A stretch of DNA of 64,000 bases from Vicinamibacterales bacterium (GTDB lineage: Bacteria; Acidobacteriota; Vicinamibacteria; Vicinamibacterales; 2-12-FULL-66-21): assembly GCA_035463475.1 (NCBI GenBank), contig DATHTE010000003.1, forward strand, positions 6,670 through 70,669, written 5' to 3'. The notes beneath the pieces were generated by a model, which did not search any database, was not told the DNA's origin, and saw only the letters and a list, made by a program, of their open reading frames with translations. A program made the position numbers and the translations under genes. Positions 42,459 through 63,920 of the stretch are shown here, in pieces. Each line of letters starts with the position of its first letter. Positions within the stretch are counted from its first letter, which is position 1.

Positions 42459-44225
42459 CTACCTAGTAACGGTAGGAACTTCGCGCCAGCCCCTGGCGGT
42501 TCGAAGTTGCTCCCGCAGCTTGAGGCTGGCAGGTTCGTCAACCGTCCATGTCGCCGGATCGATGACGACACCGTAGTCGTCTCGCGCTGACGACAAGGAC
42601 ACGAGTTCGTTCCGCACGTCTCTGAGCACCCTAGCGGGCTCGCGGTCGAGCGGATCGCCCCAGCCGCCCGCCCCTGGCTGCTCGTGCCTGAACACCTCCC
42701 CGCGCCTGATGCGCATCGTCAACTTTGCAGGAAGATCACGGTTGTCCGAATTGGGGTTGAGCACGTTGCGTGACGGCTTTCCTGGCTGTCCTCCGTAGAG
42801 ACCATAGGGTCTGAAGATGCGTCGGTCGGCGCGAACCTGAAGGACGGCTTCCTCTTCGAGCAGCCGGTAGTCCCTTCGAAGCGACATCCCTCCGCGATGC
42901 TTCCCCGGTCCCCCGACGTCCTGAATGAACTCGCAGCAGAGGATTTCCAGAGGCTGCTCGACTTCGGTCATCTCCGCCGACGGCAGGGAGATATTGGTGA
43001 ACAGGTTCGCATTACCGTCCAGGCCGTCCGCCCACGGGCGACCACCCCAGGCGGTGCAAAAGAACTCCACGAAGATGAACGGCGTTCGATCCGGATAGTA
43101 GCCACCGATCGAAACGCCCGTATTCCCGCCTTCGGAGGCCGCAACGATGCGGTCTGGCAGCATTCGCGCCAACGCACCGAAACACGTGTCGACCATTCGA
43201 AAGCCCGTGAGCCCCCGAGCGGCGCACGCCGCAGGAACCACAGCATTGGCAATGGTGCCCGGCGGAGCGACTACTTCGATCGCGCGGTAGAATCCAGCGT
43301 TACACGGAATATCCGATGGCAGTACCGATTTCATGCAGGTGTACGTGGCGGCTTTCGTGTACGAGAGCGTATTGTTGATGGCACCTTTGACCTGCGGCGA
43401 ACTCCCGGTCCAGTCAACGACGAGATGATCTCCCTTCTTTCGCAGCGTGACCTGCAGTGGGATCGCGATTCCCAAGTCCACGCCGTCATCGTCAATCCAG
43501 TCGGTGAAACTCCACTCCCCGTCCGGTAATGCCCCGACAGCCGCACGCGTCATGCGCTCCGTATAGTCCAATATCTGGTCCATGTGGGCGGTGACGCGGG
43601 CTGCGCCGTCCTTGCGGAGGAGACGTAGAAACGCATCCTCTGCGATGTGGCACGCGGCCAATTGCGCGCGGATGTCTCCAAGCACCCGAACGGGCAGGCG
43701 CACGTTTGTCTCCAGAAGCCGGAACAGCGTCTCGTTCGGCTCTCCAGCGTCGTACATCTTCACGGGCGGTATGCGCAGTCCCTCCTGGAATATCTCCGTC
43801 GAATCAGAAGCGTTTGAGCCGGCGACGCGCCCGCCCATGTCAGTCTGGTGGCAGATCGTGGCAGCAAACGCAATCCGTTTGCCCTCGAAGAAAATTGGTT
43901 TGAGGACGAAGAGGTCCGGGAGGTGCATCCCCCCCTCGAAGGGATCGTTCAGGCAGTACACGTCTCCGGGGCGCATTCGATCGCCATAACGCTCGAGAAC
44001 GGCCCCAAGTGCGTCCGGGAACGACGCGAGATGCGCCGGCAGTGTCAGTCCCTGTGCAACCGTCCGCCCTGCTGCGTCTGCCAGGGCGGTTGAATAATCC
44101 ATGTTGTCTTTGAGAACACCGGAGTACGAGGTCCTCAGGATCGTCAACGCCATTTCGTCGGCGATGGACAGCAGCACGTTTTTGAAAACTTCAAACTCGA
44201 TAGGATCGCGCGGTGAATCGCTCAC
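42459..44225 (-). CDS. hyuB: Hydantoinase B/oxoprolinase subunit
   Basis: DPIEFEV, RTSYS, DYSTAL, LNDPFEGGMHLPD, HQTDMGG, EIFQEGLRIPP, GAGGWGDP. Confidence 0.9.
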   Translation of the reverse strand: MSDSPRDPIEFEVFKNVLLSIADEMALTILRTSYSGVLKDNMDYSTALADAAGRTVAQGLTLPAHLASFPDALGAVLERYGDRMRPGDVYCLNDPFEGGMHLPDLFVLKPIFFEGKRIAFAATICHQTDMGGRVAGSNASDSTEIFQEGLRIPPVKMYDAGEPNETLFRLLETNVRLPVRVLGDIRAQLAACHIAEDAFLRLLRKDGAARVTAHMDQILDYTERMTRAAVGALPDGEWSFTDWIDDDGVDLGIAIPLQVTLRKKGDHLVVDWTGSSPQVKGAINNTLSYTKAATYTCMKSVLPSDIPCNAGFYRAIEVVAPPGTIANAVVPAACAARGLTGFRMVDTCFGALARMLPDRIVAASEGGNTGVSIGGYYPDRTPFIFVEFFCTAWGGRPWADGLDGNANLFTNISLPSAEMTEVEQPLEILCCEFIQDVGGPGKHRGGMSLRRDYRLLEEEAVLQVRADRRIFRPYGLYGGQPGKPSRNVLNPNSDNRDLPAKLTMRIRRGEVFRHEQPGAGGWGDPLDREPARVLRDVRNELVSLSSARDDYGVVIDPATWTVDEPASLKLREQLRTARGWREVPTVTR

Positions 44226-44264
44226 GGTGGCTCCCCTTGCACCTCACGGCTGCTTCGCGGGTCA

Positions 44265-46361
44265 TCATTGCTGAAGCGTGATGACGATGTTTCCGACCTC
44301 ATCGGCGGCAGCATTCGCACCTGGAGGGATCACGCAGGTCGAGTCGTACTCCTCGACGATGCAGGGTCCCGATCGGTGGACGGCGAGGTCCGCGCGGGTG
44401 AGGATCGGCGTTTTCAACCAACCCGAGTCGGGCCCGAAGTACACGCGGCGGCACGGGAATGGATCCGCGGCGTTCCGTCGTTGGGCCACGTCCAATCTCG
44501 CCGCCGCGCGGGGCTTATCCGGAACGCCGCGGCCGACAACGCGCAAGCTCACGATCTCCATCGGTTCGTGAGGCCCGGCGCGATGTCCATACATGCGCTC
44601 GTGTTCACGAGCGAACCCTTCCTCCAGGGCGGTCATGGCGTCGCGATCAATGGCGCCGGAAGGTGCAGAAATCGTTAGTTCGTATGACTGCCCTTGATAG
44701 CGCATGTCGACGGCGCGCCAGAGGCGGGCACGGTCACCAGTGAACCCTTCGGCGGCAAGCCGCTCGAGGGCACGCCCCTCCATTCCGTCCCAGACCCCGT
44801 TGAGCGCGTGCAGATCGAGATCGCGAGTCCCGTGCCACCACGTCTGCACGTAGTGGTGTTCCACATCGGAGTACACGAGGCCGAACGCCGAGAAGAGCCC
44901 CGGAGAAGGCGGCACGACGATACGGGCGATCTCGAGGGACCGGGCGATTCCTGCGGCGAACAGCGGTCCATTGCCTCCGAATGCGAAGAGGACGTAATCA
45001 CGCGGGTCACGACCGCGCTCGCTCGACACTGCCCGGATCGCGCGCCTCATGTTCGCGGCCGCGATCACGTGTGCGCCGTAGGCGGCTTCTTCGAGCCGCA
45101 TGACGAGCGGCTTCGCGACCTTTTTCTCGAAGACCGCTAGGGAACGCGCGGCATTCAGCTTCACTGCACCACCGGCAAGCTGGAAAGGGTTCAGATAGCC
45201 GAGAATGACATTGGCGTCGGTGATGGTGGGCTCCGTCCCGCCGAGGTCATAGCAGAGTGGGCCGGGAAAGGCCCCCGCGCTTCGGGGGCCGACCTGAAGC
45301 GACCCCCCCGAGTCGATCCATACCACCGAGCCCCCGCCAGCGCCGACCTCCGCCAGATCGATCGCGGGAACTCGAATGAGATACCCCGCGCCCGACAGCA
45401 GGCGGGAACCGTGCATCATGCCCCCGCCCACCTGGTATTCGGCCGCCCGAGTCACCTCGCCGTCTTGAACGATCGACGCTTTTGCCGTCGTCCCCCCCAT
45501 GTCGAAGGTGATCGCCCTTGAGAGCCCCATTCTGCGCGCGAGGAACTGTGCGCCCACGACGCCGGCAGCGGGCCCTGACTCGATGATGTGCACGGGCATC
45601 CGGCACGCAGCCGCAGCGGTCATAAGACCACCGTTGGATTGCATGATTAGAATCGGAGCAGTCACGCCAATTCGCTGAAGCCCCACTCGCAGTGCCTCGA
45701 GATAGGCTCGCACAACCGGCATCACGTACGTGTTGATGGCTGTCGTGGACGTTCTCTCGTACTCTCTGATTGCGGGCTCGACATCAACGCTGATGCAGAC
45801 CGGTAGGTCCGGATGGTGGCGCTCCAAGTACGCCTTGATCTGCTCCTCGTGGACGGGATTCGCGTACGAGTTGAGGAGGCACACCGCAATCGCTTCGACG
45901 TTCTCGCCGATCAGCCGTTGGACCGCTTGGTCGACGTCCGCCTCGTCCAGTGACCTGAGGACCTGGCCGCGCGCGTTCACGCGTTCATCGACCTCGAGTC
46001 GCAGGTACCGCTCCACCAGCGGAACGGGCTTCTGCCATTGGAGGTCGTACAGATTCGGCATCCGCAAGCGCCTGATTTCCAGAACGTCACGAAATCCTTT
46101 GGTCGTGATCAAGCCCGTGCGTGCTCCCCGGAGTTCGAGGATCGCGTTCGAAGCGACCGTCGTCCCGTGAAGGATTTCGCTAATCTCAGCGGGCGCCACA
46201 CCAGCTTCGGCGAACACCTGCACGAGCCCGTCGACAATGGCGCGCGAGTAATCGTCTACCGTCGAAGAGATCTTCTTTGTGTGGACCTGACCGTCCTCGT
46301 CGAGGAAGACGATGTCGGTAAACGTTCCCCCGATGTCGACCCCCACCCTGAAGGCACTCAT
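44265..46361 (-). CDS. hyuA: Hydantoinase A/oxoprolinase subunit (ATP-binding)
   Basis: GVDIGGTFTD, HGTTVASNA, REYERTSTT, ESGPAAG, DMGGTT, VGAGGGS, SAGAFPGP. Start at 46361. Confidence 0.92.
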   Translation of the reverse strand: MSAFRVGVDIGGTFTDIVFLDEDGQVHTKKISSTVDDYSRAIVDGLVQVFAEAGVAPAEISEILHGTTVASNAILELRGARTGLITTKGFRDVLEIRRLRMPNLYDLQWQKPVPLVERYLRLEVDERVNARGQVLRSLDEADVDQAVQRLIGENVEAIAVCLLNSYANPVHEEQIKAYLERHHPDLPVCISVDVEPAIREYERTSTTAINTYVMPVVRAYLEALRVGLQRIGVTAPILIMQSNGGLMTAAAACRMPVHIIESGPAAGVVGAQFLARRMGLSRAITFDMGGTTAKASIVQDGEVTRAAEYQVGGGMMHGSRLLSGAGYLIRVPAIDLAEVGAGGGSVVWIDSGGSLQVGPRSAGAFPGPLCYDLGGTEPTITDANVILGYLNPFQLAGGAVKLNAARSLAVFEKKVAKPLVMRLEEAAYGAHVIAAANMRRAIRAVSSERGRDPRDYVLFAFGGNGPLFAAGIARSLEIARIVVPPSPGLFSAFGLVYSDVEHHYVQTWWHGTRDLDLHALNGVWDGMEGRALERLAAEGFTGDRARLWRAVDMRYQGQSYELTISAPSGAIDRDAMTALEEGFAREHERMYGHRAGPHEPMEIVSLRVVGRGVPDKPRAAARLDVAQRRNAADPFPCRRVYFGPDSGWLKTPILTRADLAVHRSGPCIVEEYDSTCVIPPGANAAADEVGNIVITLQQ

Positions 46362-46444
46362 GCCCGGGCTCCGCACCCGCAGGACTCGCCGAGTTTCATC
46401 TGTGACGCGGCCCTCCTCGCGCTGGACCGGCGGTCATGGCATCG

Positions 46445-47344
46445 CTAGGGAAGCAGACCGGCTTGGCGCAGCGCGTCACGAAGTTCCTGCTTCGCGGCGT
46501 CTCCCAATGGACGGAAAGGCGGCCGTACGGGACCGGAAGGGAGGCCGACGAGTTCGAGCGCGGCCTTGGTAGCTGCCGGCTGCCCGTACTTCCGGCAAAA
46601 GTCGCGGATTGGCTGCCAGCGATAGAAGCGGCTCCGGGCCGACTCCCACTCGCCTGCCTGGATTTCCGCGTAAAGGGACACATACTCGGCGGTCATGAAG
46701 TTCGAGAGCGTGGAGGTACACCCGGGCATTCCGAGCGCCATCGCGCCGAGAATGGTTCCATCGGAGCCACACATGACGGCGATCTTGTCACCGGCGGCGG
46801 CAAGCGTCCGCACCTGAGCGTGGATATCCGTGGCGCCCTGCTTCACCGCGACAATGCGCTCGAGGTCTGCCAGTTCGCCGATCTGCTCGGGACTGAGATG
46901 CACACCGATGCTGGTGCTGTTGTAAATCATCACCGGAACATCGACCGCCTCGCAGAGCGTCTCGAAGTGATGCCGGATGTCCTCTGGCTCGACTTCGGCG
47001 ACGTACGGTGGTGTGACCATCACCATATCGGCGCCGGCGCGCCTGGCCGCCTCGCTCAGCGCCACGGCCTCCAGAGTTCCGCTCGCGGCCGTACAACACA
47101 CGAGCGGCACGCGCCCCGCCACGACGTTTGCGGCGGCGGCAAAGAGCTGGCGGCGTTCGGATTCTGTGAGGCTCGGATACTCCGCGTAGGTGCCGCCGAC
47201 GATGATCCCGTGTGAACCCGCATCAATAAAGTGATCGATGTTTCGCCGCAGCGAGACGAGGTCGACAGACAGGTCTCCGGACATCGGCGTAACCGCCAGA
47301 ACGTAAATTCCTCGGATCTGCTGGCTCCTTCGTTTCATCGTCAT
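46445..47344 (-). CDS. DapA/NAL-family class I aldolase (probably not true DHDPS)
   Basis: Schiff-base Lys (VAVKQ) and Tyr (MIYN) are present; the substrate loop reads GTYAE rather than the GTTGE of DHDPS. Confidence 0.85.
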   Translation of the reverse strand: MTMKRRSQQIRGIYVLAVTPMSGDLSVDLVSLRRNIDHFIDAGSHGIIVGGTYAEYPSLTESERRQLFAAAANVVAGRVPLVCCTAASGTLEAVALSEAARRAGADMVMVTPPYVAEVEPEDIRHHFETLCEAVDVPVMIYNSTSIGVHLSPEQIGELADLERIVAVKQGATDIHAQVRTLAAAGDKIAVMCGSDGTILGAMALGMPGCTSTLSNFMTAEYVSLYAEIQAGEWESARSRFYRWQPIRDFCRKYGQPAATKAALELVGLPSGPVRPPFRPLGDAAKQELRDALRQAGLLP

Positions 47345-47398: not shown

Positions 47399-48097
47399 TC
47401 AGAGGTATTGGGAAAGTACGTTGACCCGGTATGACGCCGCGATCTTCCGGTTTAGGACCGGGTCGTCGAGTTCCAGGTCGTATGCCTCCCCAAAGACGAG
47501 CCCCGACCGGGTGGCAATGGTGCCCGAAAACAGCACCACGCCCAGCCGAGGAGGCCACGTCACGTCCGGAAGGGCGCAGAGCAGCTCCCGCGGCGACAGA
47601 AGCCCGCCGAGCGCTCCTTCCTGATACAGCGATCTCGTGCCGTTCTCGCTCGTCCAGCAACGGAGTACCAGCTCGTCCCAGTGATCCGCCACCTCGCGGT
47701 AGGGCCAGCACGACGCCGCGATGAACTTGCCGCACATCTGCTTGGAGGCCGGAATGGACTTCGTTTCGACGTCACGATCTGTTTGATCGCTGCCGACCGT
47801 CACCCAGATGTCGTCGCCGCGGCACAGCAGCACGCACTCCACCTCGCCCGAGGACTTGTCGCTCACGACCGTCATCTCGCGGTCTGTCGTAAGCAGGTAG
47901 GGGGAGAAGTTCATGAACGTCGGGACTCGCGTTGGACGTGGCACGCCAAGCTGAGCGAGCTCTTCGATGTGTGCCTCCACGGCGTCCCGGTTGCGCCCTG
48001 CCCAGCCACAGCACATCAGGCGACCCGCCTCGAAGGTGAGTCGGCGCGATTCGCCCTTCGCGTTCACCGTGAGGGCGAGCGATTTCACTCCAATCAT
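47399..48097 (-). CDS. DUF2848 family protein (FAH-like fold)
   Basis: GWAGRN..V..HIEEL..LGVP.P, SSGEVE, VGSDQTDR..E, SKQMC. Confidence 0.82.
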   Translation of the reverse strand: MIGVKSLALTVNAKGESRRLTFEAGRLMCCGWAGRNRDAVEAHIEELAQLGVPRPTRVPTFMNFSPYLLTTDREMTVVSDKSSGEVECVLLCRGDDIWVTVGSDQTDRDVETKSIPASKQMCGKFIAASCWPYREVADHWDELVLRCWTSENGTRSLYQEGALGGLLSPRELLCALPDVTWPPRLGVVLFSGTIATRSGLVFGEAYDLELDDPVLNRKIAASYRVNVLSQYL

Positions 48098-49542
48098 GAC
48101 TCCTCCGATTCGATAGCCGATTGCCCTGAGGACGTCAGCGTCGGACGCTTGACCAACCTCAAGTCACGTTCGAACGCGTCGCCGATCCGCAGGACCATCG
48201 CCTCGTCGAACGGACGTCCAGCGATTTGCAGACCAATGGGCAAACCTGCTGCTGAGTAACCGCAGCAGACGGATAGGCAAGGCATGCCCGTCAGGTTGTA
48301 GATCCGAGTGAAACGGGTCAGCGCGGCAGGTACCGGCTCCGCCCGGCCGTCCACCAGCACGGTGGTGTCGTCAATCAGCGGAGCCGTGACTGGCAGTTGC
48401 GGCGTGATCAGGGCGTCTACGGCCCGGAACGCCCGGGCAAAGGCGCCCTGCACCTTCCGTCTGATCCTGAGGGCTTTCAGGTAGTCCGCCGCGGAAACAT
48501 TCGCGGCAGCGTCCAGCCGTGCGCGGACGTCCGTGCCGAGCGCCTCGGAACGCGTGCGGTGCCATTTCTCGAGAGAGCCCGCCGCTTCTGCGAACAGGAT
48601 AATGGACGCGGCACGCGCGGCGTCCGGAAGGAGATCGAGCGAAATCGGCGACACGCTGGCACCCAGCTGTTTGAGCCGGGCGAGCGCCTGATCGATCGAT
48701 GAGCGGACCTCAGGGTACAGGCCGTCGAAATAGAACTGATCGGGAACGCCCAGCCTGACGCCCTCCAGATCTCCCTCGAGAGCACGCGTGTAGTCCGGTA
48801 CCGGCACTCTAGCGCTCGACGGATCCCGCCGGTCGGGCCCGGCGAGTAACTGCATCGCAAGCGCGAGGTCTCGGACGCTGCCCGCAATCGGCCCCACGTG
48901 GTCCATCGACCACGCCAAAGGATAGGCGCCGAAACGGCTGACGCGCCCATACGTGGGTTTGAGGCCACAGACACCGCAAAGCGACGCGGGGATCCTGACC
49001 GAGCCGCCCGTATCCGTTCCCAGTGTCAGGAACGCGAACGAGCAGGCTATGGCTGCTGCCGAGCCGCCGCTCGAGCCGCCCGTCATCCGGGAAGGGTCCC
49101 ACGGATTCCGCACTGCGCCGTAGTGCGGGTTCACCGAGGTCGCGCCGAACGCAAACTCGTGCATGTTCAATTTGCCGAGCAGGATTCCGCCGGCCCGATC
49201 CAGACGGTCAACTACCGCCGCGTTGTATGAGGGCACGAACGCGTTCAGGACTTTCGACCCGCATGTCGTCCGTATTCCCCTGGTCAGGAACAGGTCTTTG
49301 ACGGCGTACGGCACCCCGTGCAGTGGCCCCGCGTATCGCCCCTTCAGAATCTGCGATTCGGCCTTCGAGGCCGCAGCAAGCGCTGGTTTGACCAGAGTTG
49401 TGATGAACGCGTTGATGCGGCCGTCGTGCTCTTCGACCCGTTCAAGGCAGGCGCGGGTGATCTCGACCGGCGACGCCTGTTTCGTGCGGAGCGCGTCCGA
49501 CAGCGACGAGAGCGTCCAGGTGTGGAGGTTTGTGGCGCTCAC
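48094..49542 (-). CDS. Amidase signature family enzyme (AtzE/GatA-like), cytoplasmic
   Basis: AVKDLF, GKLNMHEFA, GGSSGGS, GTDTGGSVRIPAS (Ser-cisSer-Lys triad); 4-bp overlaps with both neighbours. Confidence 0.92.
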   Translation of the reverse strand: MSATNLHTWTLSSLSDALRTKQASPVEITRACLERVEEHDGRINAFITTLVKPALAAASKAESQILKGRYAGPLHGVPYAVKDLFLTRGIRTTCGSKVLNAFVPSYNAAVVDRLDRAGGILLGKLNMHEFAFGATSVNPHYGAVRNPWDPSRMTGGSSGGSAAAIACSFAFLTLGTDTGGSVRIPASLCGVCGLKPTYGRVSRFGAYPLAWSMDHVGPIAGSVRDLALAMQLLAGPDRRDPSSARVPVPDYTRALEGDLEGVRLGVPDQFYFDGLYPEVRSSIDQALARLKQLGASVSPISLDLLPDAARAASIILFAEAAGSLEKWHRTRSEALGTDVRARLDAAANVSAADYLKALRIRRKVQGAFARAFRAVDALITPQLPVTAPLIDDTTVLVDGRAEPVPAALTRFTRIYNLTGMPCLSVCCGYSAAGLPIGLQIAGRPFDEAMVLRIGDAFERDLRLVKRPTLTSSGQSAIESEES

Positions 49543-49751
49543 GTATCTGACTCGTCGGGAAAGAAGATGTTTGCGGGCTCGAGTTCCAGTGGATCCAGCA
49601 TGCCGAGCCGGTCGGCTTGTTCTTTCAGGGTTTCCGCCGGCACTGGACGGAGCGCGGCAGGTGCAGGCCGCGCCGGCGACCTGGCAAGAGACCGGGAGGC
49701 CTTTCTCCTGCGCCGCGAAACCGTTCTCGTGCGTGTTCGTTTCTTCGGCAT
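49539..49751 (-). CDS. Small putative amidase partner subunit (AtzG/GatC-like C-terminus)
   Basis: Ends LDPLELEPANIFFP (EPAxxF motif); its stop overlaps the amidase GTG; very basic N-terminus. Confidence 0.6.
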   Translation of the reverse strand: MPKKRTRTRTVSRRRRKASRSLARSPARPAPAALRPVPAETLKEQADRLGMLDPLELEPANIFFPDESDT

Positions 49752-51155: not shown

Positions 51156-51164
51156 GGATTCTCC

Positions 51165-55100: not shown

Positions 55101-55407
55101 AATACAGGCCCGCATCGACTGACTTGAACACGCCACCGCCGTTGGCGCCGTAATAGAAGACCAGCGGATTCCGAGGGTCGCCGGCAACCGCGGAAACGCG
55201 GTTGCCTTTCGCAGGACCGATGAAGCGCCACTCAAGCGCGCGCAGGTAGTCTCCAGGAACCGCGTTCGCGTAGCCCGCCTGCCGCCTTGCATCCACCGCG
55301 CTTGCCGCCGAAAGACCAGTGGTCCGCGTCGTCCGGTCAGCGAGGACAGCGGTACCTACGAGCATGCAGACGGCAGCTGCGATTCCGCTCACGTGTCTAC
55401 GCGACAT
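52120..55407 (-). CDS. Secreted VPS10/BNR repeat protein 2
   Basis: WRFIGPAKGNRV, multiple SxDxGxTW repeats, GTHSRG, same architecture as 14966..18259. Confidence 0.9.
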   Translation of the reverse strand: MSRRHVSGIAAAVCMLVGTAVLADRTTRTTGLSAASAVDARRQAGYANAVPGDYLRALEWRFIGPAKGNRVSAVAGDPRNPLVFYYGANGGGVFKSVDAGLYWEPVSDGYFKTGPVGAVAVAESDPNVVYAGMGDTCMRPDMASGDGVYKSTNGGKTWAHVGLEETRHIAQVRIHPSNPNLVYVAAFGHAFGPNPERGVYRSKDGGKTWQRVLFKSERAGAIDLSMDRGDPRVLYAAIYQFVRQPWDEISGGPDSGLYKSVDGGDTWTDLSKRPGFPTGIKGRIGVAMSPAKPSRVWALVEAEDGGLFRSDDSGATWQAISRQRDLRRSPSSYMHVYPHPKNPEILYILSYEAWKSTDGGKTFRTWPTTHGDNHAMWIDPNNPDRMIEGNDGGATVTLNGGNSWSGQFNQISSAVYRIAVDNQFPYRVYATQQDSSAVSVPSRTSGPAITFHDTYPTGGAESGHIAVKPDDPKVVLAGAYGSGPGGEGQMKRYDGRTGLAGGRVINIWPEDTYSSHPQKDKKFRFNWTFPLFFSPHDPDLLYAAGNYVFRSRDLGQSWEIISPDLTRNDTSVLQAVSGGPITSLGFAQTFTNVVFALAESPLRRGELWAGSDDSAMHLSRDGGRSWNDISSKDWPKWLKINTIELSRHDPATAYFAANRHQLDDQRPYVYMTTDYGKTWKSITAAIGPDDFARVIREDPVRAGLLYLGTERGVYVSFNAGESWHSLQRNLPGVAVHDLLVKDNDLVIGTHSRGLWILDDVTPLRYLTDAVARSAMHLFQVPPTYRLLGASLGRRGAGGAVPSDVISYGGEVAYKHVEGPNGEVTRLPLNAGRNPPNGVVVTYFLREKPAGDVTITIRDQADNVIRRFSSRGSSTNPGEPVVSAVVGTNRFVWDMRYPNARELSPGAALSGMEWPRPAPPAAAPGTYVVQLEAAGRTMEEPFEIRKDPRVAWSESDLAAQFTLWMAARDKVSETTDIVNRLREIRKQVDERGAGANGARKEAADRLKARLASIEGGLTRTVGANPMLLPPKGLHQQFATLTTIIGSADGAPTRWTHTVFNELSARLAGYETELKGLIATEVSEFLKSGPSPADSRD

Positions 55408-55452: not shown

Positions 55453-58287
55453 TCAACGCGTGGCGCTGGTCGTCTGCCGACCTGCCTGTGGCACTTCGAC
55501 CGAGCGGGCCGCGCCGTAGTAGATCCCATTGAACAGAAACGGGAACGTGGCGTGTGTCCCACCGCGGAACGTAATTTCCGGACCGAACAGAAACACCTTC
55601 CCCTTGCCAAGCGGGATCTCCAGGGCTGCCGCACCGTCTTTGAGGTAGCCCTGGCCCCACCCCCATCCGCTGCGTACCGGTGCCTCGGCGGAGTACCAGG
55701 CCACCACCTTCACGTCCCGCGACGTGGCCGTCGGTGCCAATCTGAAGACCGGGCTGCGATTGAAGAACACATCCACCTGATCGGGCATCCCGTACGCGAG
55801 CGGGTTGGTGTTATCCACGCGAGCTTTGACCAGCGCGCCCGGCACGAAGTACTTCTCCGATGGCAGCGGCCGCTCCTGACCCGTCGCGGTGCGCTCGACG
55901 AGGTGGTCGGCGACCGGCAGCCCGAGGTGGTAGGCGAGATTCGTGGCCGTGCCCGCGGCGATGATCGTGCCACCGTCCTCAACAAAGGTCCTGAGTTGCG
56001 GGATGGTCTTCGCCACCGTCACGGTGCCGACCTTGCCCGCCCACTCGGGCGGGAGATTGGATGGAGGGGCGCTCTCGCCACGCCTCGGCGGTTCCCTATC
56101 GGTTCGTGGAACGCCGTCCATGAACACGATGACGTCGTACCTGGCTCTGAGATTGCCGGCATCGAGCTGCGGGGGGTACACGACTTCGAACGTGGGGAAC
56201 TGGAACTGCTGCTCGAACAGCCATCGGACCCAGCCAGAGGGCATCGAGCCTCCGTACTGGTCCACCAGTCCCACTCTGACCGGCTGCAACTTGTAGGCCT
56301 CGCCGGTCGGTGGCCGGGCCGTCCCTTCGAATGTCAGGCCTATCTCAGCGGCCAATTTGTCGATCGCGGCGCGTGTAGTTGGCCGCGACGGGATGTAGAT
56401 CGTCCCAGGCGGGTACGATTTCCCGCCGACCGTGGTCCCTGCCTTCAGCCAGTACACGTCCTCCTTGGCGCCCAACAACCGGTTGGTCGCCGTGAACGCA
56501 TCCTTCACGGCGTGGCTCAGCAGATAGCCTGCCGGAGATTCTCCGGCACCTGCCACGACGCTGCCCGCAGGAATCTTGATCAGCTGCCCGAAGGGCAACT
56601 TCTCAAACGATCCCTCCAACGGATCGAGGATGCGATCGAATTGCACCCCCATCTGAAAGGCCAGCGTGTAGCCCGCCATGTCGTAGGGCGGCTTGGGTGG
56701 GCCCCCGGGATAGTAGAAGTCGTTCGGGTGGTTCTGCGGCTCCAGCATGTCGCGGAGGTGCGGGCGGTACGCCTGCGCCGCCTTGAGCACGTAGGATCCC
56801 GCCGCGTAGCTCTTTCCAGCGACCTGAAACGCACTCCTCGCCCGGTGCACCTCGATCCCCGCTTTGACGAGCATGTTCACGAACTTGGTCGCGGTCAGGA
56901 AATCGGGCTGGTCGGCGGGGATGATGTAGGCGCGCGGGTCCCGGCGCTCGGGCGTGCGCATGCTGTCGTAGTACTTGGACGGCACGACCTGCGCCGATCC
57001 CACACGGGTCTCACCCTCGCGTTGGGACCGTTCTGCCGTCGCCTCCTTGGCCGCGGCGGCTTTGGCCTCGTCGATCCACGTGGGCTGCAGCGTCCAATGA
57101 TCCTTGCTGCCGCGCTCGATCGAGTTCATCCCCATCCGCCAGCTTCGAAAGAGCCACTGATCCTTGTTGCGCGAGGCAACATCGAGGATGGCGCGCTGAG
57201 CGGAGAGGATGTAGTCAATGGACTGCTTGAAGTGCCAGACCCTCTGGGGCGGGATCGGCAATGGCACGTCCCCGTGCGGCAGCTGGCGATCGAGCACCAG
57301 CGGGATCTCCATGGGCGTCGGATGGCCGTGCGCCTCCGTCAGGATGCCGACCTGGTTATGGAACAGCGAGGTGGCGCGCTCCAGGCCATTGGCCCAGGTG
57401 GAGTAGGAGGCTTCGCTGCGCGACGCGGAGCCGGCCTTGCCTTCGGCGAGGAACCGGCTGGTAATCGCGGCGCCGACCTCGTCGATGCCGATGATGACGA
57501 GCGGATCCAGGTTGTAGTTGAAGGGATCGCGGAACGGCGGCACAAAGAGGATGGCCCCCTGCGGGCCCGTCTGGTGTGCGTTGTACGTGATCTGAGGCAT
57601 CCACTCGATGTACATCTGCCGATTGATCGCCTCGGTTTCCGGCTGGTTCGCCATGAACGAGTCGCGGTTGTTGTCGTGGCCGACGTACTTGTGGTACAGC
57701 CGCGGCAACTGCATGTTCCGCTGCTTCGGGTCCGGGTCGCGCATGTACCAGTTCGCGGTCAGCTCCAGCCCGTCGGGGTTGACCGGCACGAGCAGCAGAA
57801 TCACGTCGTTCAGGAAGCGCAGCGTCTCGGCGTCGTTCTGGCTCACCATCTGGTAGGCCTGCCAGAAGAGAACCTGGGAGTTGAGGATTTCGGTGGCGTG
57901 TAATCCGCCGTCCTCCCACACGACCGCCTTTCCCTCTGACGCGAGCGCTCGGGCCTGCGGCTCTGTGATGCCCTCGGCCCTTCCAAGCCTGTGTGAGATC
58001 TCTTTATAACGGGCGAGCTTCTTGTGGTTCTCGGGAGACGTGATGATGGCCATGACCATCGGCCGGCCTTCGGCCGTCTTCCCGATCTCGACGATCTTCA
58101 TCCGCTCCGACAGCTTGTCCAGCTGGTTCCAATAGTCCAGCAGCTGCGTGTAGTTCGCGACGAAGTAGTCGTCGCCGACGGTCGACGGGCCGACCTTAGG
58201 AGGAGGAACCGGCCCTTGCGCCTGGACGGCCGGGCAAACCGTGAGCGTCAGGACCGCGATGAGAGCGAGCCCAATCCTCTTCTTCAC
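55453..58287 (-). CDS. Secreted M14 zinc carboxypeptidase with C-terminal GATase-like domain
   Basis: GGLHATE (HxxE), NPDG, DNNRD, YNAHQ. Signal peptide from GTG 58287 (alternative start GTG 58329). Confidence 0.88.
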   Translation of the reverse strand: MKKRIGLALIAVLTLTVCPAVQAQGPVPPPKVGPSTVGDDYFVANYTQLLDYWNQLDKLSERMKIVEIGKTAEGRPMVMAIITSPENHKKLARYKEISHRLGRAEGITEPQARALASEGKAVVWEDGGLHATEILNSQVLFWQAYQMVSQNDAETLRFLNDVILLLVPVNPDGLELTANWYMRDPDPKQRNMQLPRLYHKYVGHDNNRDSFMANQPETEAINRQMYIEWMPQITYNAHQTGPQGAILFVPPFRDPFNYNLDPLVIIGIDEVGAAITSRFLAEGKAGSASRSEASYSTWANGLERATSLFHNQVGILTEAHGHPTPMEIPLVLDRQLPHGDVPLPIPPQRVWHFKQSIDYILSAQRAILDVASRNKDQWLFRSWRMGMNSIERGSKDHWTLQPTWIDEAKAAAAKEATAERSQREGETRVGSAQVVPSKYYDSMRTPERRDPRAYIIPADQPDFLTATKFVNMLVKAGIEVHRARSAFQVAGKSYAAGSYVLKAAQAYRPHLRDMLEPQNHPNDFYYPGGPPKPPYDMAGYTLAFQMGVQFDRILDPLEGSFEKLPFGQLIKIPAGSVVAGAGESPAGYLLSHAVKDAFTATNRLLGAKEDVYWLKAGTTVGGKSYPPGTIYIPSRPTTRAAIDKLAAEIGLTFEGTARPPTGEAYKLQPVRVGLVDQYGGSMPSGWVRWLFEQQFQFPTFEVVYPPQLDAGNLRARYDVIVFMDGVPRTDREPPRRGESAPPSNLPPEWAGKVGTVTVAKTIPQLRTFVEDGGTIIAAGTATNLAYHLGLPVADHLVERTATGQERPLPSEKYFVPGALVKARVDNTNPLAYGMPDQVDVFFNRSPVFRLAPTATSRDVKVVAWYSAEAPVRSGWGWGQGYLKDGAAALEIPLGKGKVFLFGPEITFRGGTHATFPFLFNGIYYGAARSVEVPQAGRQTTSATR

Positions 58288-58325
58288 AACCGCACCAGCC
58301 TTTCGTCCACGTGATACGAATGAAC

Positions 58326-58610
58326 TCACCGGGCCCGGAAATGCGTGGCGGGCTCCACGCCATGTGGGACGGCATAGCGGCGCACCGTCTCCAAGTCCTG
58401 GGACAGCATGTCCATCGCACGGCGCGTCCGCTCGATCTGGGTGTCGGTGAGCGTCTCACCCGAGGGCGGGAGTGCCGCGCCGGGCGTCTGGCCGGACACC
58501 TTCTCTGCAAGGCGAACCCCACCACCAGCCAGTCCCGTCATGCCGCGAACCGCCAGGAGCCCGCCAAGAGCAGCCGTGAAAGCTCGCCGTCCTTTGCTGA
58601 AGTTATTCAT
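58326..58610 (-). CDS. Small Tat-signal protein with AtzG/GatC-like C-terminus (putative amidase partner)
   Basis: KGRRAFTAALGGLLAV twin-Arg N-terminus; ends VPHGVEPATHFRAR (EPAxxF). Confidence 0.7.
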   Translation of the reverse strand: MNNFSKGRRAFTAALGGLLAVRGMTGLAGGGVRLAEKVSGQTPGAALPPSGETLTDTQIERTRRAMDMLSQDLETVRRYAVPHGVEPATHFRAR

Positions 58611-58647: not shown

Positions 58648-60069
58648 TCAGTCCAGCCTCGGATGGCGGGTATGCCAGCCGGTCGCGTCCTGGTACGCCT
58701 TCGCGAGGGTCATGACGGACGCCTCCTCAAAGCTGCGACCGACGAACTGAATGCCCACCGGCAGGCCGTCGACATACCCTGCGGGAACGCAAACGGCCGG
58801 TAGGCCAGTGAGGTTGGTAAAACTGGACGTCCTGGGTGCGGGGCGTGCGGGCCCCGCAGGCCGTGCCGGCGCGGGCGTAGACGCCGGTGGACGCGACGGG
58901 CCCTCGGCCGCCGGTTGCGCTGGACCGCCGGCGGGCGCCACCCACACGTCAACCGTCTTCATCAGCCGTGTGGCGTCGGCTTGCATCAGGGCGCGAATCT
59001 GCTGCGCCTTGAGGTACTGCACGGCCGGGATCACGCGCGCAGCGGGCAGAGTGTTCTTCCACGCCCTCGCGGCATCGTCGCTTAGCGTCGCGACGTGATC
59101 GTCGGTAATGAGATCCTCGAAGAAGAGCGCCGCTTCCGCGCCGCGCACCACCTCGAAAACCGAGTTGTAGGGGTAGTCCGGCAACTGGATCGGCTCGAGT
59201 GTCACACCGAGCCGTTCGATCGCGCCGAGCGCCTCTTTCATGATCGGCTTGACGGTCGCGTCGCGCAGTCCGTCGAACTCCGCCTCGACCACGCCAACTC
59301 GCAGTTTGGCAGGCGAGGCGCCGGGATCCCAGCGGTACGGCATTTCGACGGTGGACGGATCGCGCGGGTCAACGCCTCGGATCGCATCGAAGACAAGGCC
59401 GCAGTCTTCGACGGTTCGACAGATCGGTCCGACCTTGTCGATTGTCCAGCCGAGCGCCATCGCACCCGCCCGGCTCACCCGTCCGTAGGTTGGCCTGAGC
59501 GCGCTGACGCCACACACCGCAGTCGGGCCGATAAGCGATCCCATCGTCTCGGTTCCGACCGCGAAGCCGACCATTCCGGCCGCAGTTGCCGCCGCCGGCC
59601 CCGCTGAGGAACCACCGCTGGATCGAGTCGTGTCCCAGGGACACCGGGTCGTACCGCCGAACCAGCGCGCGCCGCGCGCCAGTTCGCCCATCGACAGCTT
59701 CGCGAGGAGCAGCGCGCCAGCGTCGCGGAGCTTTCCGACGACGGTCGCATCCTCGGCCGGTATCCGTTCCTCGTGATACTTGATGCCCCACGTCGTCCGA
59801 ATGCCCTTCGTGTCGAACAGATCCTTCAGGCCATACGGGATGCCGTGCAAGGGGCCGCGATAGCGGCCCTTTGCGATCTCCTGCTCCGCCTGGCGCGCCT
59901 CGGAACGCGCCCGTTCTTCGGTGAGAGTAATGACAGCGAGCAGCTTCGGATCGAGCCGCCTCATTCGCTCGAGACACGCCTCGGTGAGTTCGACCGGCGA
60001 CAGCCGCTTAGCCTTGATCTGCCGGGCGAGGTCGGTTACCGAGGAGAAGACCAGTTCTTCGCCTGCCAT
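58648..60069 (-). CDS. Amidase signature family enzyme without signal peptide
   Basis: GLKDLFD, AKLSMGELA, GGSSAG, GTETMGSL..P. Start MAGEELVF at 60069 with GGGAG SD. Confidence 0.9.
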   Translation of the reverse strand: MAGEELVFSSVTDLARQIKAKRLSPVELTEACLERMRRLDPKLLAVITLTEERARSEARQAEQEIAKGRYRGPLHGIPYGLKDLFDTKGIRTTWGIKYHEERIPAEDATVVGKLRDAGALLLAKLSMGELARGARWFGGTTRCPWDTTRSSGGSSAGPAAATAAGMVGFAVGTETMGSLIGPTAVCGVSALRPTYGRVSRAGAMALGWTIDKVGPICRTVEDCGLVFDAIRGVDPRDPSTVEMPYRWDPGASPAKLRVGVVEAEFDGLRDATVKPIMKEALGAIERLGVTLEPIQLPDYPYNSVFEVVRGAEAALFFEDLITDDHVATLSDDAARAWKNTLPAARVIPAVQYLKAQQIRALMQADATRLMKTVDVWVAPAGGPAQPAAEGPSRPPASTPAPARPAGPARPAPRTSSFTNLTGLPAVCVPAGYVDGLPVGIQFVGRSFEEASVMTLAKAYQDATGWHTRHPRLD

Positions 60070-60124
60070 GCGACGCTCCCGCGGCACGCGGCGGCGTGAT
60101 GTGACGCCGCGTGCCGGCACAGAA

Positions 60125-60979
60125 TTAACGACCGTTGGACGATGCGAGGGCCGAGCGCATTTCCTTGAGGGAGTTCCGCAACTGCCCCTGCAACATCTGG
60201 AAATCGGATCCAAGGCTGATCAACTTGTACCCGGCGGCCACCTTCTCCGCGATGTTCTTCGGGTTCGCGTTCGTGCCGGCGATCACGTTGCGCGCCAGAC
60301 ACAGCTTCAGGACTTTCGCGGCATCGTCGGCGGAGATATGAACCGTGTGAACGGCGGCGAGGCCGGGCGTCTCGATGATCTCCTTGGCGTTCTTGACGCC
60401 CTCCTCCGTCTCAATCATCGCCACGACCATGAGCTTGCCCTTCGGATTCAGCGGCCACAGCTCCGACGCCTCGTGGGTGGGCGCGCTGTTGACGCCCTGC
60501 AGGAGGGACTGCTCCGTGTACATGAAGATCGAGATGATCCGCTCCAACTCGGCACGGCTTTCGACAACGGGCACCCAGACTCCGCTTGCCGGGCCCACTC
60601 GGATGGATTCGGCGATCTCAAACCGGGGATCCCAGCCCGCTCGATGCCCCAGTTTGATGAGCACCGAAGGAGCTGGCTTCGGCTCCGACCGATATCGGCT
60701 GTTGAAGTCCGGCACCTCGAGGAGGAAGCTGTGCAGCGTTCGAAAGTCGTAGATGTCGTGCTCCACATCCGCGACGATGAAGTCGAGGTCGCTGGTCGCG
60801 AGCACCTTCGTGATCCGGGTCGCGCCCATCGCGCCCGTCCAGATGCCGATTGCCGGCTTACCTGCTGCCAGAATCGAGGCCAGGTTGTTCGCGGGTTCAT
60901 CCGCCTTCGGCGCTGCGGGTGCCAGAGTGACGATCAGCAGCGCCAGAACCAGTACGAGGACGCGTGTCGGTAATCTCAT
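60125..60979 (-). CDS. HpcH/HpaI aldolase/citrate lyase family protein with signal peptide
   Basis: GKPAIGIW, DFIVADVEH, LWPLNPKG.LMVVAMIET.EGVKN; N-terminus MRLPTRVLVLVLALLIVTLAPA; AGGAG SD. Confidence 0.78.
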   Translation of the reverse strand: MRLPTRVLVLVLALLIVTLAPAAPKADEPANNLASILAAGKPAIGIWTGAMGATRITKVLATSDLDFIVADVEHDIYDFRTLHSFLLEVPDFNSRYRSEPKPAPSVLIKLGHRAGWDPRFEIAESIRVGPASGVWVPVVESRAELERIISIFMYTEQSLLQGVNSAPTHEASELWPLNPKGKLMVVAMIETEEGVKNAKEIIETPGLAAVHTVHISADDAAKVLKLCLARNVIAGTNANPKNIAEKVAAGYKLISLGSDFQMLQGQLRNSLKEMRSALASSNGR

Positions 60980-61034
60980 GAGGATCTCCTCTTTATGAAC
61001 GCAAACTGAACACGGTCAGAGATGAGACGGAGTG

Positions 61035-61103
61035 TGGTGGCCGGGCTCCGATCGTCGAGGCCCGGCACCATGTCGAGAGCAACGGAGTGCTCCTACGCTC
61101 CGT
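61035..61103 (-). other. Twin hairpins just downstream of the TBDR3 stop (possible mRNA-stabilising structure)
   Basis: ACGGAGTG/CGCTCCGT stem adjacent to the stop and TGGTGGCCGGGC/GCCCGGCACCA stem. Confidence 0.45.
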
Positions 61104-63920
61104 TCAGAACGACAGCTTCCCGCCGACCCGAACGACACGCGGATTGATCGTCGCCGACACGACACCCAGGCTGGAGCCGACGGTGTTGTTCTGATTGAGG
61201 ACCGTGTTGACGTTCAACACGTTGTACACGTCGGCAAAGGGCTCCAACCGTATGTTGCGCACTCTGAACACGCGCCCCACTCGCAGATCGAGCATGCGCC
61301 ACGGCTCGTAGCGCTCCTCGTCGTTGCGCTCGAGTCGGACCGTCTGAGTGGCGCGGGTCAGGGTCGGCACCAGCGCCCGGCCCACATTCAGCGAGCGAAC
61401 TCGAGGGTGTCCGCTGTTCGCGACGAACGACCCGCTGAACGAAATCTCGTAGGGCAAGATGTAGCTGCCCGAGATCTTGAACTGGTGCGGTTCGTCGTTG
61501 CCGACAGCTCCATAGTCGAAGATGTTGTTGTTGGGGTCGCTCGGATCTGTCGAGACAATTCGTCCCAGATTCCTGCCGTAGTGATACCCGCCCTGCACCT
61601 GTCCCTTCGACCCGAACCGGCGCTGAAGATGGAACTCGATGCCGTTGTAATTCGTGTCCAGCTCCGTGCGATTCTCCAGGATGTTGTCCTGCTTGCCGGC
61701 CGTCGACGGGTTCTGGTTGTAGATGGTCAGCGGCTGGTTCGTCAGCGGATTGTTGATGACCACCGGGATGTAGCTGTCGGTCGGCACGGCGCGGTTGACG
61801 GTGGCCCTCATGTCGCGCTGTTCGCGACGGTACGCCATCACGGACACTTTGAGGTTGGCCCCAATCTGGCGCTCGACGCCCAGGCTGTACTCCCGGTTGA
61901 ACGGGCGACGCAGGTCAGGATCCAATGTCGTGGTCGTGCCTCCGCCCCAGCCCGCGCAGCGCGTGATCTCAAACTCTTGCGCGATGTCGTCGAGGTTGGC
62001 GTCCCTCCACGCGCAGCGGTTCGTCTGGTAGAAGAGGGGATTCAGCGATTCAGCCAGGCCCGTAGCCTCGTTGCCGATGTACTTGCTGAAGCTGGCTTTC
62101 AGCACCGTCTTGGCATCCCCGCTGACGTCGAGCGCGACGCCCACCCGCGGCACGACGGTTTGCCAGGTCTTCACGTCCCGCTTTTCGATCTGCCGTTCCG
62201 GCATCCATGTTCCCGCCTCGGCGGTCTGATTGGGCCACCAGATATGCAGGTAATCGTACCGCGCACCTGCGTTGACCGTCAGGCGGTTCGCGACCATCCA
62301 GCGGTCCTGGATGTACGCTCCAAACTGCCGCGCCTTGTTGTTCGTGTAGACAGGCGAATTGATCAGATCGACCGAATCCGACACGCCGCTGCGGTACCGC
62401 TGGATGATGTCGCCGTGCTCCGTGTAGTCTCTGATGGTCTCGTAACCGCCGAAATCGTACTGGGCACCCGTTCTCAACTCGTGCGAACCACTCCAGGTGC
62501 CAGTCAGCGTCGCCGATCCTGCGAGGATCGTCCGGTACGGATTCCCCTCTCGAATTCGAGTTGGGGCGACCGAGAGCACGCCTGTGACGATGTCGAGGTG
62601 GGGGATGTCGCCGGGGTTGACTTCCGGGCGGTATCGCTCTCTCTGGTTGACTTTGGTTGTCGACCCCATGATTTCATAGATCCAGCGGTTCGACGGGGTC
62701 GCGGTGTACGTCATGCCAACCAAATAGTTGAAGGGATTCTGCGTATTGAAGTTCGCGGCCTCGGGGCTGACGAACGTCTGGCCGACTCCCTGGTCCATCC
62801 GAAACGGCCTGTAGATGGCCTCTCGGCTATCGGCAATTGTGAACCTGTTCGTTTTGTTGATTTGCCAGGTGATCTTGCCGTAATAGTCGCCGCGCCGCAC
62901 GTAGTTCTGCAGCTGGTCACCTTGCAGCGTGAACTGGTTGGCCAGGAGCTCCGTGTAGGACCAGATGCGGACGTTTCCGAAGAACCAGACCTTGCTCTTC
63001 TTGATTGGGCCGCCGAGGGAACTGTCGACGTCATACGCCTTGGTTCCGCCGCTGGTCGCCCGCACCCCGCGCTCCCTGAGTTCATCGTCGAGATTCGAGG
63101 ACTGCATCCGCTTTTCGAAACCCGAGGCGAAAACGGAACCGCTGAAATTGTCTCCCCCGCTCTTCGTCACCAGCGTCATCGCGATGCCGCCATGAGCCAC
63201 CCACGCCGGAATCGCGGTGGTCTGGTAGTTCACTTCCTCGTTGGCGCCCGTGCCGCCGTAGGACATCGGCGCGTCTCCGCCGCCGTAGTAAGAGTTGGTT
63301 GGAAGACCGTCACGGAAGTATGTTCTCTCGTTGCCGCGGCTGCCGTGGATCTGCCATCCCGAGCCGTAGTTCTGCGACAGCGAGCCGCCCACTTCCGGAG
63401 TGCCGGTCGAGAACCCGACCATGAACTTCGTCATGTCGAAGAGGTTGCGCGAACTCGGAATCGTGTTGATCGTCTCGTCTGTCACCACGTACTGAGTCGT
63501 CGCCGTGCGAACGTCCACGAGCGGCGACTCGCCGGTCACGGTGAGTGTCTCGGCGACCGCACCCACGCCGAGCTGAGCGTCAATGGTCGCAGTGAATCCC
63601 GAGTTGATCACCACATCGCTGCGTTGGTAGCTCCCAAACCCGGGCAGCGAGAACTTGACCGTGTACCGCCCCACCGGAAGGCGCAGGAAGTGGTAATTCC
63701 CCGAAGCCTCGGTGGTCGTCTCTCGGGTGCCTTCAATCAGGGCCGGCGAGCTTATTTCGACCGTCACGCCCGGCAGCACGCCGCCGCTTTCGTCTCGAAC
63801 CACACCCTCGATTCCGCCAGTGGCTGTCTGTCCCCACGCCGGTGTCACAAGGACGATCCATAGAAGCACGCTCAGTTCCGCCGCGCGCCAGCTGCCGCCG
63901 CTCTTTCGACGTGCGTTCAT
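61104..63920 (-). CDS. TonB-dependent receptor 3 (different subfamily from 1 and 2)
   Basis: Signal peptide from MNARRK at 63920 (GAGG SD), GGVLPGVTVEISSPALI, YIQDRW..LTVNAGARYD, terminal F. Confidence 0.92.
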   Translation of the reverse strand: MNARRKSGGSWRAAELSVLLWIVLVTPAWGQTATGGIEGVVRDESGGVLPGVTVEISSPALIEGTRETTTEASGNYHFLRLPVGRYTVKFSLPGFGSYQRSDVVINSGFTATIDAQLGVGAVAETLTVTGESPLVDVRTATTQYVVTDETINTIPSSRNLFDMTKFMVGFSTGTPEVGGSLSQNYGSGWQIHGSRGNERTYFRDGLPTNSYYGGGDAPMSYGGTGANEEVNYQTTAIPAWVAHGGIAMTLVTKSGGDNFSGSVFASGFEKRMQSSNLDDELRERGVRATSGGTKAYDVDSSLGGPIKKSKVWFFGNVRIWSYTELLANQFTLQGDQLQNYVRRGDYYGKITWQINKTNRFTIADSREAIYRPFRMDQGVGQTFVSPEAANFNTQNPFNYLVGMTYTATPSNRWIYEIMGSTTKVNQRERYRPEVNPGDIPHLDIVTGVLSVAPTRIREGNPYRTILAGSATLTGTWSGSHELRTGAQYDFGGYETIRDYTEHGDIIQRYRSGVSDSVDLINSPVYTNNKARQFGAYIQDRWMVANRLTVNAGARYDYLHIWWPNQTAEAGTWMPERQIEKRDVKTWQTVVPRVGVALDVSGDAKTVLKASFSKYIGNEATGLAESLNPLFYQTNRCAWRDANLDDIAQEFEITRCAGWGGGTTTTLDPDLRRPFNREYSLGVERQIGANLKVSVMAYRREQRDMRATVNRAVPTDSYIPVVINNPLTNQPLTIYNQNPSTAGKQDNILENRTELDTNYNGIEFHLQRRFGSKGQVQGGYHYGRNLGRIVSTDPSDPNNNIFDYGAVGNDEPHQFKISGSYILPYEISFSGSFVANSGHPRVRSLNVGRALVPTLTRATQTVRLERNDEERYEPWRMLDLRVGRVFRVRNIRLEPFADVYNVLNVNTVLNQNNTVGSSLGVVSATINPRVVRVGGKLSF

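Follow-up and report, generated by a model that had tools for sequence, protein, structure and literature searches.

Do fourteen genes that lie in a row on one strand of a soil bacterium's DNA form a single pathway for taking up and degrading a nitrogenous compound, and what might that compound be? The question is raised by positions 42459-63920 of a 64,000-nt stretch (GenBank assembly GCA_035463475.1, contig DATHTE010000003.1, positions 6,670 to 70,669 of the forward strand; hereafter the window) from a Vicinamibacterales bacterium, represented by a 5.6-Mb metagenome-assembled genome from soil (G000). An original prediction, made from the letters of the sequence, had proposed an import and catabolism unit for an amide or lactam compound. 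Follow-up of that proposal leads us to favor, with modest confidence, one catabolic operon for an exogenous carboxylated amide or lactam compound, led by a TonB-dependent receptor (TBDR), designed much like a polysaccharide utilization locus (PUL), and built in two layers.

Fourteen consecutive minus-strand open reading frames (ORFs) fill the block, in the order TBDR, HpcH-like, amidase2, small94, M14, VPS10, TSUP, MFS, small69, amidase1, DUF2848, DapA-like, HyuA and HyuB. Verification of the positions bore out the predicted co-orientation and short gaps, with junctions ranging from -4 to 124 nt, as well as the claim of several overlaps, of which there are three, each of 4 nt (small69/amidase1, amidase1/DUF2848 and small94/M14). 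An apparent overlap of the HpcH-like and amidase2 genes was rejected as an artefact, the ORF being over-long; amidase2 likely begins with MAGEEL at 60072. Families of the 14 products were assigned with Pfam, and specificity was checked against NCBIfam equivalog cut-offs; the predicted families were recovered, and the 94-aa and 70-aa proteins have none. Signal peptides, the twin-arginine (RR) motif, and the amidase and M14 motifs were read by inspection of the sequences. Sec-type signals are present at the N-termini of the TBDR, HpcH-like, M14 and VPS10 proteins and an RR motif in the 94-aa protein, and none is seen on amidase1, DUF2848, DapA-like or HyuAB, in agreement with the claim that gene order follows the cell envelope inward. 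Likewise, no redox-family domain was found among the 14 proteins with Pfam, as had been stated, nor any SusD family match. A scan for promoters and terminators stayed at chance level (14 terminator-like sites observed, 13.1 expected), and Rfam gave no match within the cluster or upstream of it.

Conservation of this arrangement was followed in relatives labelled Vicinamibacterales and in metagenome contigs. The closest relative is L010, a 12,986-bp contig from an ENA metagenome; collinearity with the window extends from VPS10 to HyuA, with identities of 77-82% except for small69, and the order is VPS10 (79%), TSUP (82%), MFS (80%), a DUF1028 gene inserted between MFS and small69 (5647-6417), small69 (52%), amidase1 (77%), DUF2848 (77%), a 497-aa orphan, and HyuA (77%). 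In a genome from another family of the same order (G050), one strand of contig C380 (locus L203) carries an MFS gene of a different type followed by VPS10 (68%), HyuA (78%), HyuB (87%) and TBDR (67%, adjoining HyuB), and divergent from these are HpcH (61%, ahead of amidase2), amidase2 (64%) and small94 (40%). G050 has no DUF2848, and is without the whole TSUP-MFS-small69-amidase1-DUF2848-DapA-like block. Because the envelope genes and HyuAB stay together there in the absence of the middle block, the unit is read, from gene order, as an envelope-plus-HyuAB core with a cytoplasmic module inserted between VPS10 and HyuA. The co-conservation expected of a single unit is thus partial, being seen in the collinearity of L010 and in the TBDR, VPS10, HpcH, amidase2, small94 and HyuAB retained by G050, and the original prediction's conserved core of DUF2848, DapA-like aldolase, amidase and HyuAB did not survive: HyuAB lies near DUF2848 in 3 of 80 genome loci (L025, L027, L083), and orthologues of the DapA-like protein stand beside an aminotransferase. 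Next to the G050 cluster (L203 13920-17155) is a LysR regulator gene, with an ornithine-cyclodeaminase/mu-crystallin gene and another DHDPS-like gene running divergently from it; such a pair of enzymes is typical of cyclic imino-acid metabolism.

The inserted module is centered on DUF2848 (47399..48097, minus strand; PF11010, 215 bits), which is translationally coupled to amidase1 by its 4-nt overlap. A sequence search of the PDB with this protein returned no solved relative. Its AlphaFold2 model (pLDDT 91.6, from a 36-sequence alignment) was compared with the PDB using Foldseek, and all 16 significant matches are FAH enzymes (E 3.7e-9 to 7e-6), those at the top being the oxaloacetate decarboxylase Cg1458, KdaD, HpcE, fumarylpyruvate hydrolase and 4-oxalocrotonate decarboxylase. 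The modeled protein thus has the FAH fold, and the architecture predicted is that of an FAH-fold metal enzyme. Six residues are invariant in the family (H43, E85, E87, D104, D107, K119) and are candidates for the FAH catalytic set; when the family was aligned to FAH proteins with hhalign, H43 fell on the FAH His motif and E85-x-E87 on the ExE motif, weakly (E = 0.074). The model superposes on FAH enzymes at a TM-score of about 0.6, whereas sequence identity to them is 13-19% and no Pfam FAA_hydrolase match is made; DUF2848 is a family of its own, with no studied member.

Eighty DUF2848 loci were collected from genome contigs of many phyla, an alignment query being needed since a single-sequence query found no relatives. 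At these high-GC loci a longest-ORF caller was inadequate, and a caller filtered on GC content at third codon positions (GC3) made 70 of the 80 callable. In 59 of these 70, across phyla, the DUF2848 gene has an amidase-signature gene as its neighbor, a GntR regulator and a carboxylate transporter being common companions (TRAP, or MFS in Paraburkholderia, where homologues of the window MFS at 47-48% identity stand between DUF2848 and the amidase). Some loci have a Nit-type CN-hydrolase in place of the amidase-signature enzyme, and the aldolase type varies between DHDPS-like and RraA-like. A D-glutamate-cyclase-like protein is found nearby in five cluster members, in the loci L016, L031, L042 and L050, joined by a CN-hydrolase in three loci (L031, L042, L050); creatininase and an RraA-like aldolase occur near the amidase and DUF2848 in L008; and in L027 an Asp/Glu/hydantoin-racemase-like gene adjoins HyuAB that are 66-68% identical to those of the window. 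From locus to locus, non-homologous enzymes of like chemistry (ring-amide enzymes, amide hydrolases, aldolases) thus recur around DUF2848, and this recurrence, although confined to a minority of loci, suggests that the substrate is a small carboxylic acid that is chiral and has a lactam or amide group.

Amidase1 (48094..49542, minus strand; PF01425, 413 bits) is a cytoplasmic enzyme of the GatA/AtzE branch of the amidase-signature family. Its scores are below the cut-offs for GatA (TIGR00132, 384 bits with a cut-off of 481), for the AtzE family NF006631 (380 bits, cut-off 461) and for TIGR02715 (369 bits, cut-off 425.75), and its best PDB matches are GatA (4wj3) and AtzE (6c62). Both amidase1 and amidase2 belong to the amidase-signature family by the Pfam Amidase domain and the motifs of the Lys/cis-Ser/Ser triad, which read KDLF, GGSSGG and G(T/M)GGS / MGS in amidase1. 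Directly upstream is small69 (49539..49751, minus strand), a 70-aa protein without a Pfam family, the stop codon of which overlaps the amidase1 start (GTGA). In L010 and L011 the full-length protein is kept at 52% identity, and in L008 and L018 the C-terminal half is conserved; in all four it is upstream of the amidase, and it is probably the small subunit of amidase1. The genome's own gatC-gatA pair (contig C47; L208 1330-3185) has the same arrangement, with a 4-nt overlap, and a short C-terminal (L/V)EPA motif is common to small69 and small94. Homology of these proteins to GatC was considered and is not supported, there being no Pfam GatC match at E = 10, nothing by BLASTP against the genome's own GatC, and E = 1.1 for a profile of the N-terminal domains of fused Tat amidases (described below) against GatC; the likeness is limited to gene position and the short motif. 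A PDB sequence search with small69 gave no match.

A different relation holds for amidase2 (58648..60072, minus strand; PF01425, 291 bits), an amidase-signature enzyme that has no signal peptide of its own. It scores 256 and 249 bits with the AtzE models NF006631 and TIGR02715, under their cut-offs of 461 and 425.75, is also under that for GatA, and has the motifs KDLF, GGSSAG and G(T/M)GGS / MGS. It is followed by small94 (58326..58610, minus strand), the 94-aa protein with a twin-arginine translocation (Tat) signal and no Pfam family. In most relatives (loci L180-L202) the homologues of amidase2 are fused proteins of about 600 aa, having an N-terminal Tat signal and a domain of about 90 aa, and a profile of these fused N-termini aligns end to end with small94 (hmmsearch, Z=1000; E = 1.3e-4 for the window copy and 6.8e-11 for the G050 copy). 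On the strength of that match, small94 is identified as the detached N-terminal part of amidase2, which makes it probably both small subunit and export carrier, and the signal-less amidase2 is probably exported via Tat as a two-chain enzyme. The small Tat protein, which the original prediction listed between the amidase and the M14 peptidase, belongs to amidase2 and does not represent a step of its own. The window and G050, where the N-terminal part is a separate gene directly after the amidase, form with most other relatives a natural split/fused pair.

The last two genes encode an ATP-dependent enzyme of the lactamase/hydantoinase family. HyuA (44265..46376, minus strand), the alpha subunit, has all three domains of the family (PF01968, PF05378, PF19278), and HyuB (42459..44225, minus strand), the beta subunit, matches PF02538 at 563 bits over its full length (1-519 of 519); all are above the Pfam cut-offs, placing the pair in the hydantoinase/oxoprolinase superfamily. 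HyuA scores 547 bits with CapA (NF050156) and HyuB 292 bits with CapB (NF050157), neither reaching the cut-off of 1000. The best PDB matches of HyuA are 7hk5 and 6yra, the latter a caprolactamase-type chain, with N-methylhydantoinase best at 479 bits. In addition to the L010 and G050 copies, orthologues are found in L027 (HyuA 66%, HyuB 68%). HyuB is the only Hydantoinase_B gene in the source genome, and as PxpA is encoded elsewhere in it, a housekeeping 5-oxoprolinase role for HyuAB was ruled out.

Upstream of HyuA is the DapA-like gene (46445..47344, minus strand; PF00701, 207 bits), encoding a class I aldolase or lyase of the DHDPS/NAL family. It scores 170.5 bits with the DapA model TIGR00674, under the cut-off of 206.15, and by inspection has no Arg directly after the YN motif; judged by its sequence, it is not a true DapA. 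Orthologues at 60-82% identity (L175, L176, L177, L210, L211) lie directly after a class I/II aminotransferase gene in five of five contexts. A GntR regulator and peptidases of the M20 or M24 type are also present in four of these (L175, L176, L177, L211), some of which have a CN-hydrolase and an SDR as well; on L210, a contig of 3 kb, the DapA-like gene has just two companions, the aminotransferase gene and a D-glutamate-cyclase-like C-domain gene. The hosts are Paenibacillus, Sporomusa and metagenomes, the clusters being of Firmicutes type.

The unit opens at its 5' end with the TBDR (61104..63920, minus strand; PF25183, PF13620, PF00593), likely starting at MNARRK (63920), in which an N-terminal CarboxypepD_reg domain and a barrel are recognized, the plug matching weakly. 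Next is the HpcH/HpaI-family protein (60125..60979, minus strand), with a Sec-type signal and a weak, partial match to PF03328 (37.6 bits); its family, at 55-86% identity, is spread through Acidobacteriota and other phyla, and homologues adjoin a TBDR in L174 and L172. Beyond amidase2 and small94 comes a secreted M14 metallocarboxypeptidase-family protein of 958 aa (55453..58329, minus strand; PF00246, 80 bits), with HATE and NPDG motifs and a long C-terminal extension; the start of its gene overlaps the small94 stop. The secreted Sortilin-VPS10/BNR beta-propeller protein of 1095 aa (52120..55407, minus strand; PF15902, PF02012) has orthologues in L010 and G050 that are both inside the cluster. 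Two inner-membrane transporters follow on the minus strand, a TSUP (TauE/SafE) anion transporter (51165..52094; PF01925) and an MFS transporter of the anion:cation symporter type (49794..51155; PF07690; TIGR00893 at 335 bits, under the cut-off), which resembles D-galactonate and HpaX transporters.

Two tandem modules of related composition were seen in a 98.9-kb ENA contig (L172), the first being TBDR-VPS10-AstE/AspA-like-aminotransferase-MFS-HpcH and the second TBDR-VPS10-MFS-Amidohydro_1-Amidase, with TBDR 41% and VPS10 52% identical to the window copies; this suggests that loci for the uptake of nitrogen compounds form a modular family in Acidobacteriota. The window itself contains at least three TBDR-led loci with C-N hydrolases. 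One of them meets the 3' end of the block, where a plus-strand operon at 37941-42401, consisting of a TBDR (947 aa, CarboxypepD_reg type) and then an M28 peptidase, converges on the cluster with 57 nt between the stop codons. At the other end, about 360 nt 5' of the TBDR are non-coding and reach past the window end, beyond which (L006 2950-4617) lies a minus-strand gene of about 460-555 aa without a Pfam match, divergent from a gene for a thiamine pyrophosphate enzyme. GC3 is 0.71-0.84 for the cluster genes, 0.91-0.93 for the two plus-strand neighbors and 0.83-0.93 for most other genes of the window; the block is therefore somewhat distinct in composition, and the lower values may reflect later acquisition.

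The order of reactions and the substrate are what we infer beyond these observations. The first layer is the part that is co-conserved across families of the order. In it the compound itself, or some larger precursor, would cross the outer membrane through the TBDR, and in the periplasm the compound would meet the two-chain amidase2/small94, the secreted HpcH-like protein, the M14 carboxypeptidase and the VPS10/BNR propeller, with deamidation and trimming taking place there. The MFS or TSUP transporter would then move the anionic product across the inner membrane, where HyuAB would open a stable ring amide at the expense of ATP. The second layer, the block between VPS10 and HyuA, would add the symporter-type MFS and TSUP; amidase1 with small69, being GatA/AtzE-like, would strip a terminal or omega amide as ammonia, and DUF2848 would act on the resulting or the preceding 2-oxo acid or lactam as a tautomerase, hydratase, ring-chain opener or decarboxylase, after which the DHDPS-family aldolase would split the product into pyruvate and a small aldehyde. 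For the substrate class we tentatively suggest a five-membered lactam acid of the pyroglutamate or 2-hydroxy-5-oxoproline (cyclic 2-oxoglutaramate) type, taken up as such or after release from peptides. A more specific, and speculative, version holds that DUF2848 opens or hydrates lactams of the 2-hydroxy-5-oxoproline type, the cyclic form in which 2-oxoglutaramate and its N-substituted or hydroxylated relatives mainly exist, so that the opened molecule becomes available to an omega-amidase. That role would fall to the amidase-signature enzyme with its small subunit here and to the Nit-type CN-hydrolase elsewhere; HyuAB would open the non-hydroxylated ring with ATP, the periplasmic two-chain amidase carried through Tat by its partner would free the unit from a larger nitrogenous compound, and the operon would be the first dedicated uptake and catabolism system for such lactam acids. 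We regard that version as improbable at present.

A number of observations weigh against the operon as proposed. The complete 14-gene order was seen only in close relatives, DUF2848 is present in 3 of 61 related genomes, and the best HyuB match in 400 other Acidobacteriota is 51% identical, with no closer orthologue; by these last two counts the cluster is a patchy accessory trait. In L010 the position of the DapA-like gene is taken by the 497-aa orphan (9119-10612), for which no Pfam match and no PDB sequence match were found. The aminotransferase that is the usual partner of the DapA-like protein elsewhere is missing from the cluster, and the cluster has no enzyme for the redox or transaminase step that would be required to turn a plain pyroglutamate ring into a 2-oxo acid. 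The HpcH-like protein may be non-catalytic, given its weak family match, and since no equivalog cut-off was reached, every enzyme specificity is a guess. The sequencing runs that contain the sequence are of soil-metagenome DNA only, with no RNA runs found. Finally, among 80 metagenome loci with distant VPS10 relatives (38-52% identity), a TBDR is nearby in two, an amidase in one and the other cluster genes in none, so that VPS10 alone is not a pathway marker. In favor of the operon, DUF2848 is TBDR-linked in two further Acidobacteriota loci (L009, with an M14-TBDR-DUF2848 arrangement, and L021).

Several of these points would also be expected of a mosaic of independent modules that share only a strand, each with a substrate of its own: periplasmic peptide or amide scavenging by the TBDR, HpcH-like protein, amidase2, M14 and VPS10; a self-contained transporter-amidase-DUF2848 module; and the HyuAB lactamase. 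HyuAB is missing from more than 90% of the loci that have amidase and DUF2848, the middle block is absent from G050, which does have the envelope genes and HyuAB, VPS10 relatives hardly ever have other cluster genes nearby, DapA-like orthologues belong elsewhere to an aminotransferase-containing cluster, and TBDR-VPS10-MFS-hydrolase units recur in L172. However, the middle block lies inside, not beside, the co-conserved pair VPS10 and HyuA, the same insertion is retained in L010 at 77-82% identity, the gaps are short with no excess of terminators, and the TBDR linkage of DUF2848 in two other loci also speaks against independent modules; we judge the mosaic unlikely. Somewhat less likely again is salvage of pyroglutamyl peptides or free 5-oxoproline, in which M14 and amidase2 would trim, and HyuAB, as a 5-oxoprolinase of the OplAB type, would convert the imported product to glutamate. 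Strong matches of HyuA to solved 5-oxoprolinase- and caprolactamase-type chains, peptidases within and beside the cluster, and the D-Glu-cyclase-like and Asp/Glu/hydantoin-racemase-like genes near DUF2848 or orthologous HyuAB elsewhere are all compatible with salvage, which nevertheless gives amidase1, DUF2848 and the DapA-like aldolase nothing to do, in a genome that already has the PxpA of the usual bacterial 5-oxoprolinase and in a cluster with no pyroglutamyl peptidase. AtzE and allophanate hydrolase remove carbamoyl or ureido nitrogen, and a hydantoin or ureide pathway can be built on this model, with HyuAB of the (N-methyl)hydantoinase type opening a 5-substituted hydantoin acid and AtzE-like amidase1 removing the carbamoyl or ureido nitrogen. 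Among solved proteins HyuA indeed matches an N-methylhydantoinase best, amidase1 comes near the AtzE family and allophanate hydrolase in score, creatininase is found near the amidase and DUF2848 in L008, and a hydantoin-racemase-superfamily gene adjoins the orthologous HyuAB of L027; yet neither the AtzE nor the allophanate hydrolase cut-off is reached, there are no AtzD, AtzH, urease or carbamoylase genes, and an FAH-fold enzyme and an aldolase would be superfluous for ureide breakdown, and of the explanations considered this appears the least likely.

With the two-layer, TBDR-led operon retained as the preferred reading, comparison with known systems agrees with the original prediction in recognizing no described pathway, as no NCBIfam equivalog cut-off was reached and literature searches for DUF2848 and PF11010 returned no relevant paper. 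Characterized ATP-dependent lactamases and hydantoinases include caprolactamase CapAB, 5-oxoprolinase OplAB and N-methylhydantoinase HyuAB (PMC6061476, PMC8453981). The window HyuA and HyuB have the same two-subunit architecture and match them strongly, whereas against the caprolactamase equivalog cut-off HyuA reaches about half (CapA) and HyuB less than a third (CapB), the caprolactam pathway has an omega-aminotransferase that is absent from the cluster, and the window HyuAB sits in a TBDR operon. Amidase1 is of the same branch as GatA and AtzE and has an ORF of about 70 aa ahead of it with a 4-nt overlap, an arrangement also found in the genome's own gatC-gatA pair; AtzE forms a complex with AtzG. 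It differs in scoring under the cut-offs, in the small proteins not being GatC-like and in the lack of other atz genes, and amidase2 differs further in its partner, which has a Tat signal and a downstream position. AtzE itself is a component of 1-carboxybiuret hydrolase (PMC6219798). The glutamine transaminase/omega-amidase route involves 2-oxoglutaramate and its lactam 2-hydroxy-5-oxoproline (PMC9806585, PMC10452834). A shared logic may exist here, that of an omega-amide on a 2-oxo acid existing mainly as the lactam, although the window has neither a transaminase nor a Nit-family amidase. To our knowledge, no lactam-opening enzyme belongs to that route. In PULs of the SusC/SusD type, a TonB-dependent receptor leads periplasmic hydrolases, inner-membrane carriers and cytoplasmic enzymes, and the window shares this TBDR-led, co-oriented layout but has no SusD-like lipoprotein and no glycoside hydrolase; because the enzymes of the cluster are C-N hydrolases, a nitrogenous rather than a glycan substrate is indicated.

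In summary, Acidobacteriota are abundant in soil and little is understood of how they take up nutrients; this locus presents a TonB-dependent, PUL-like design that would serve organic nitrogen compounds instead of glycans. DUF2848, an unstudied family with a predicted FAH fold that is paired with an amidase across many phyla, and HyuAB, a clade of ATP-dependent lactamases without an assigned substrate, each provide a starting point for further work. The split and fused forms of amidase2 suggest that an amidase-signature enzyme can be exported via Tat on a detached subunit that bears the signal. Identification of the substrate would give a function to hundreds of related loci.

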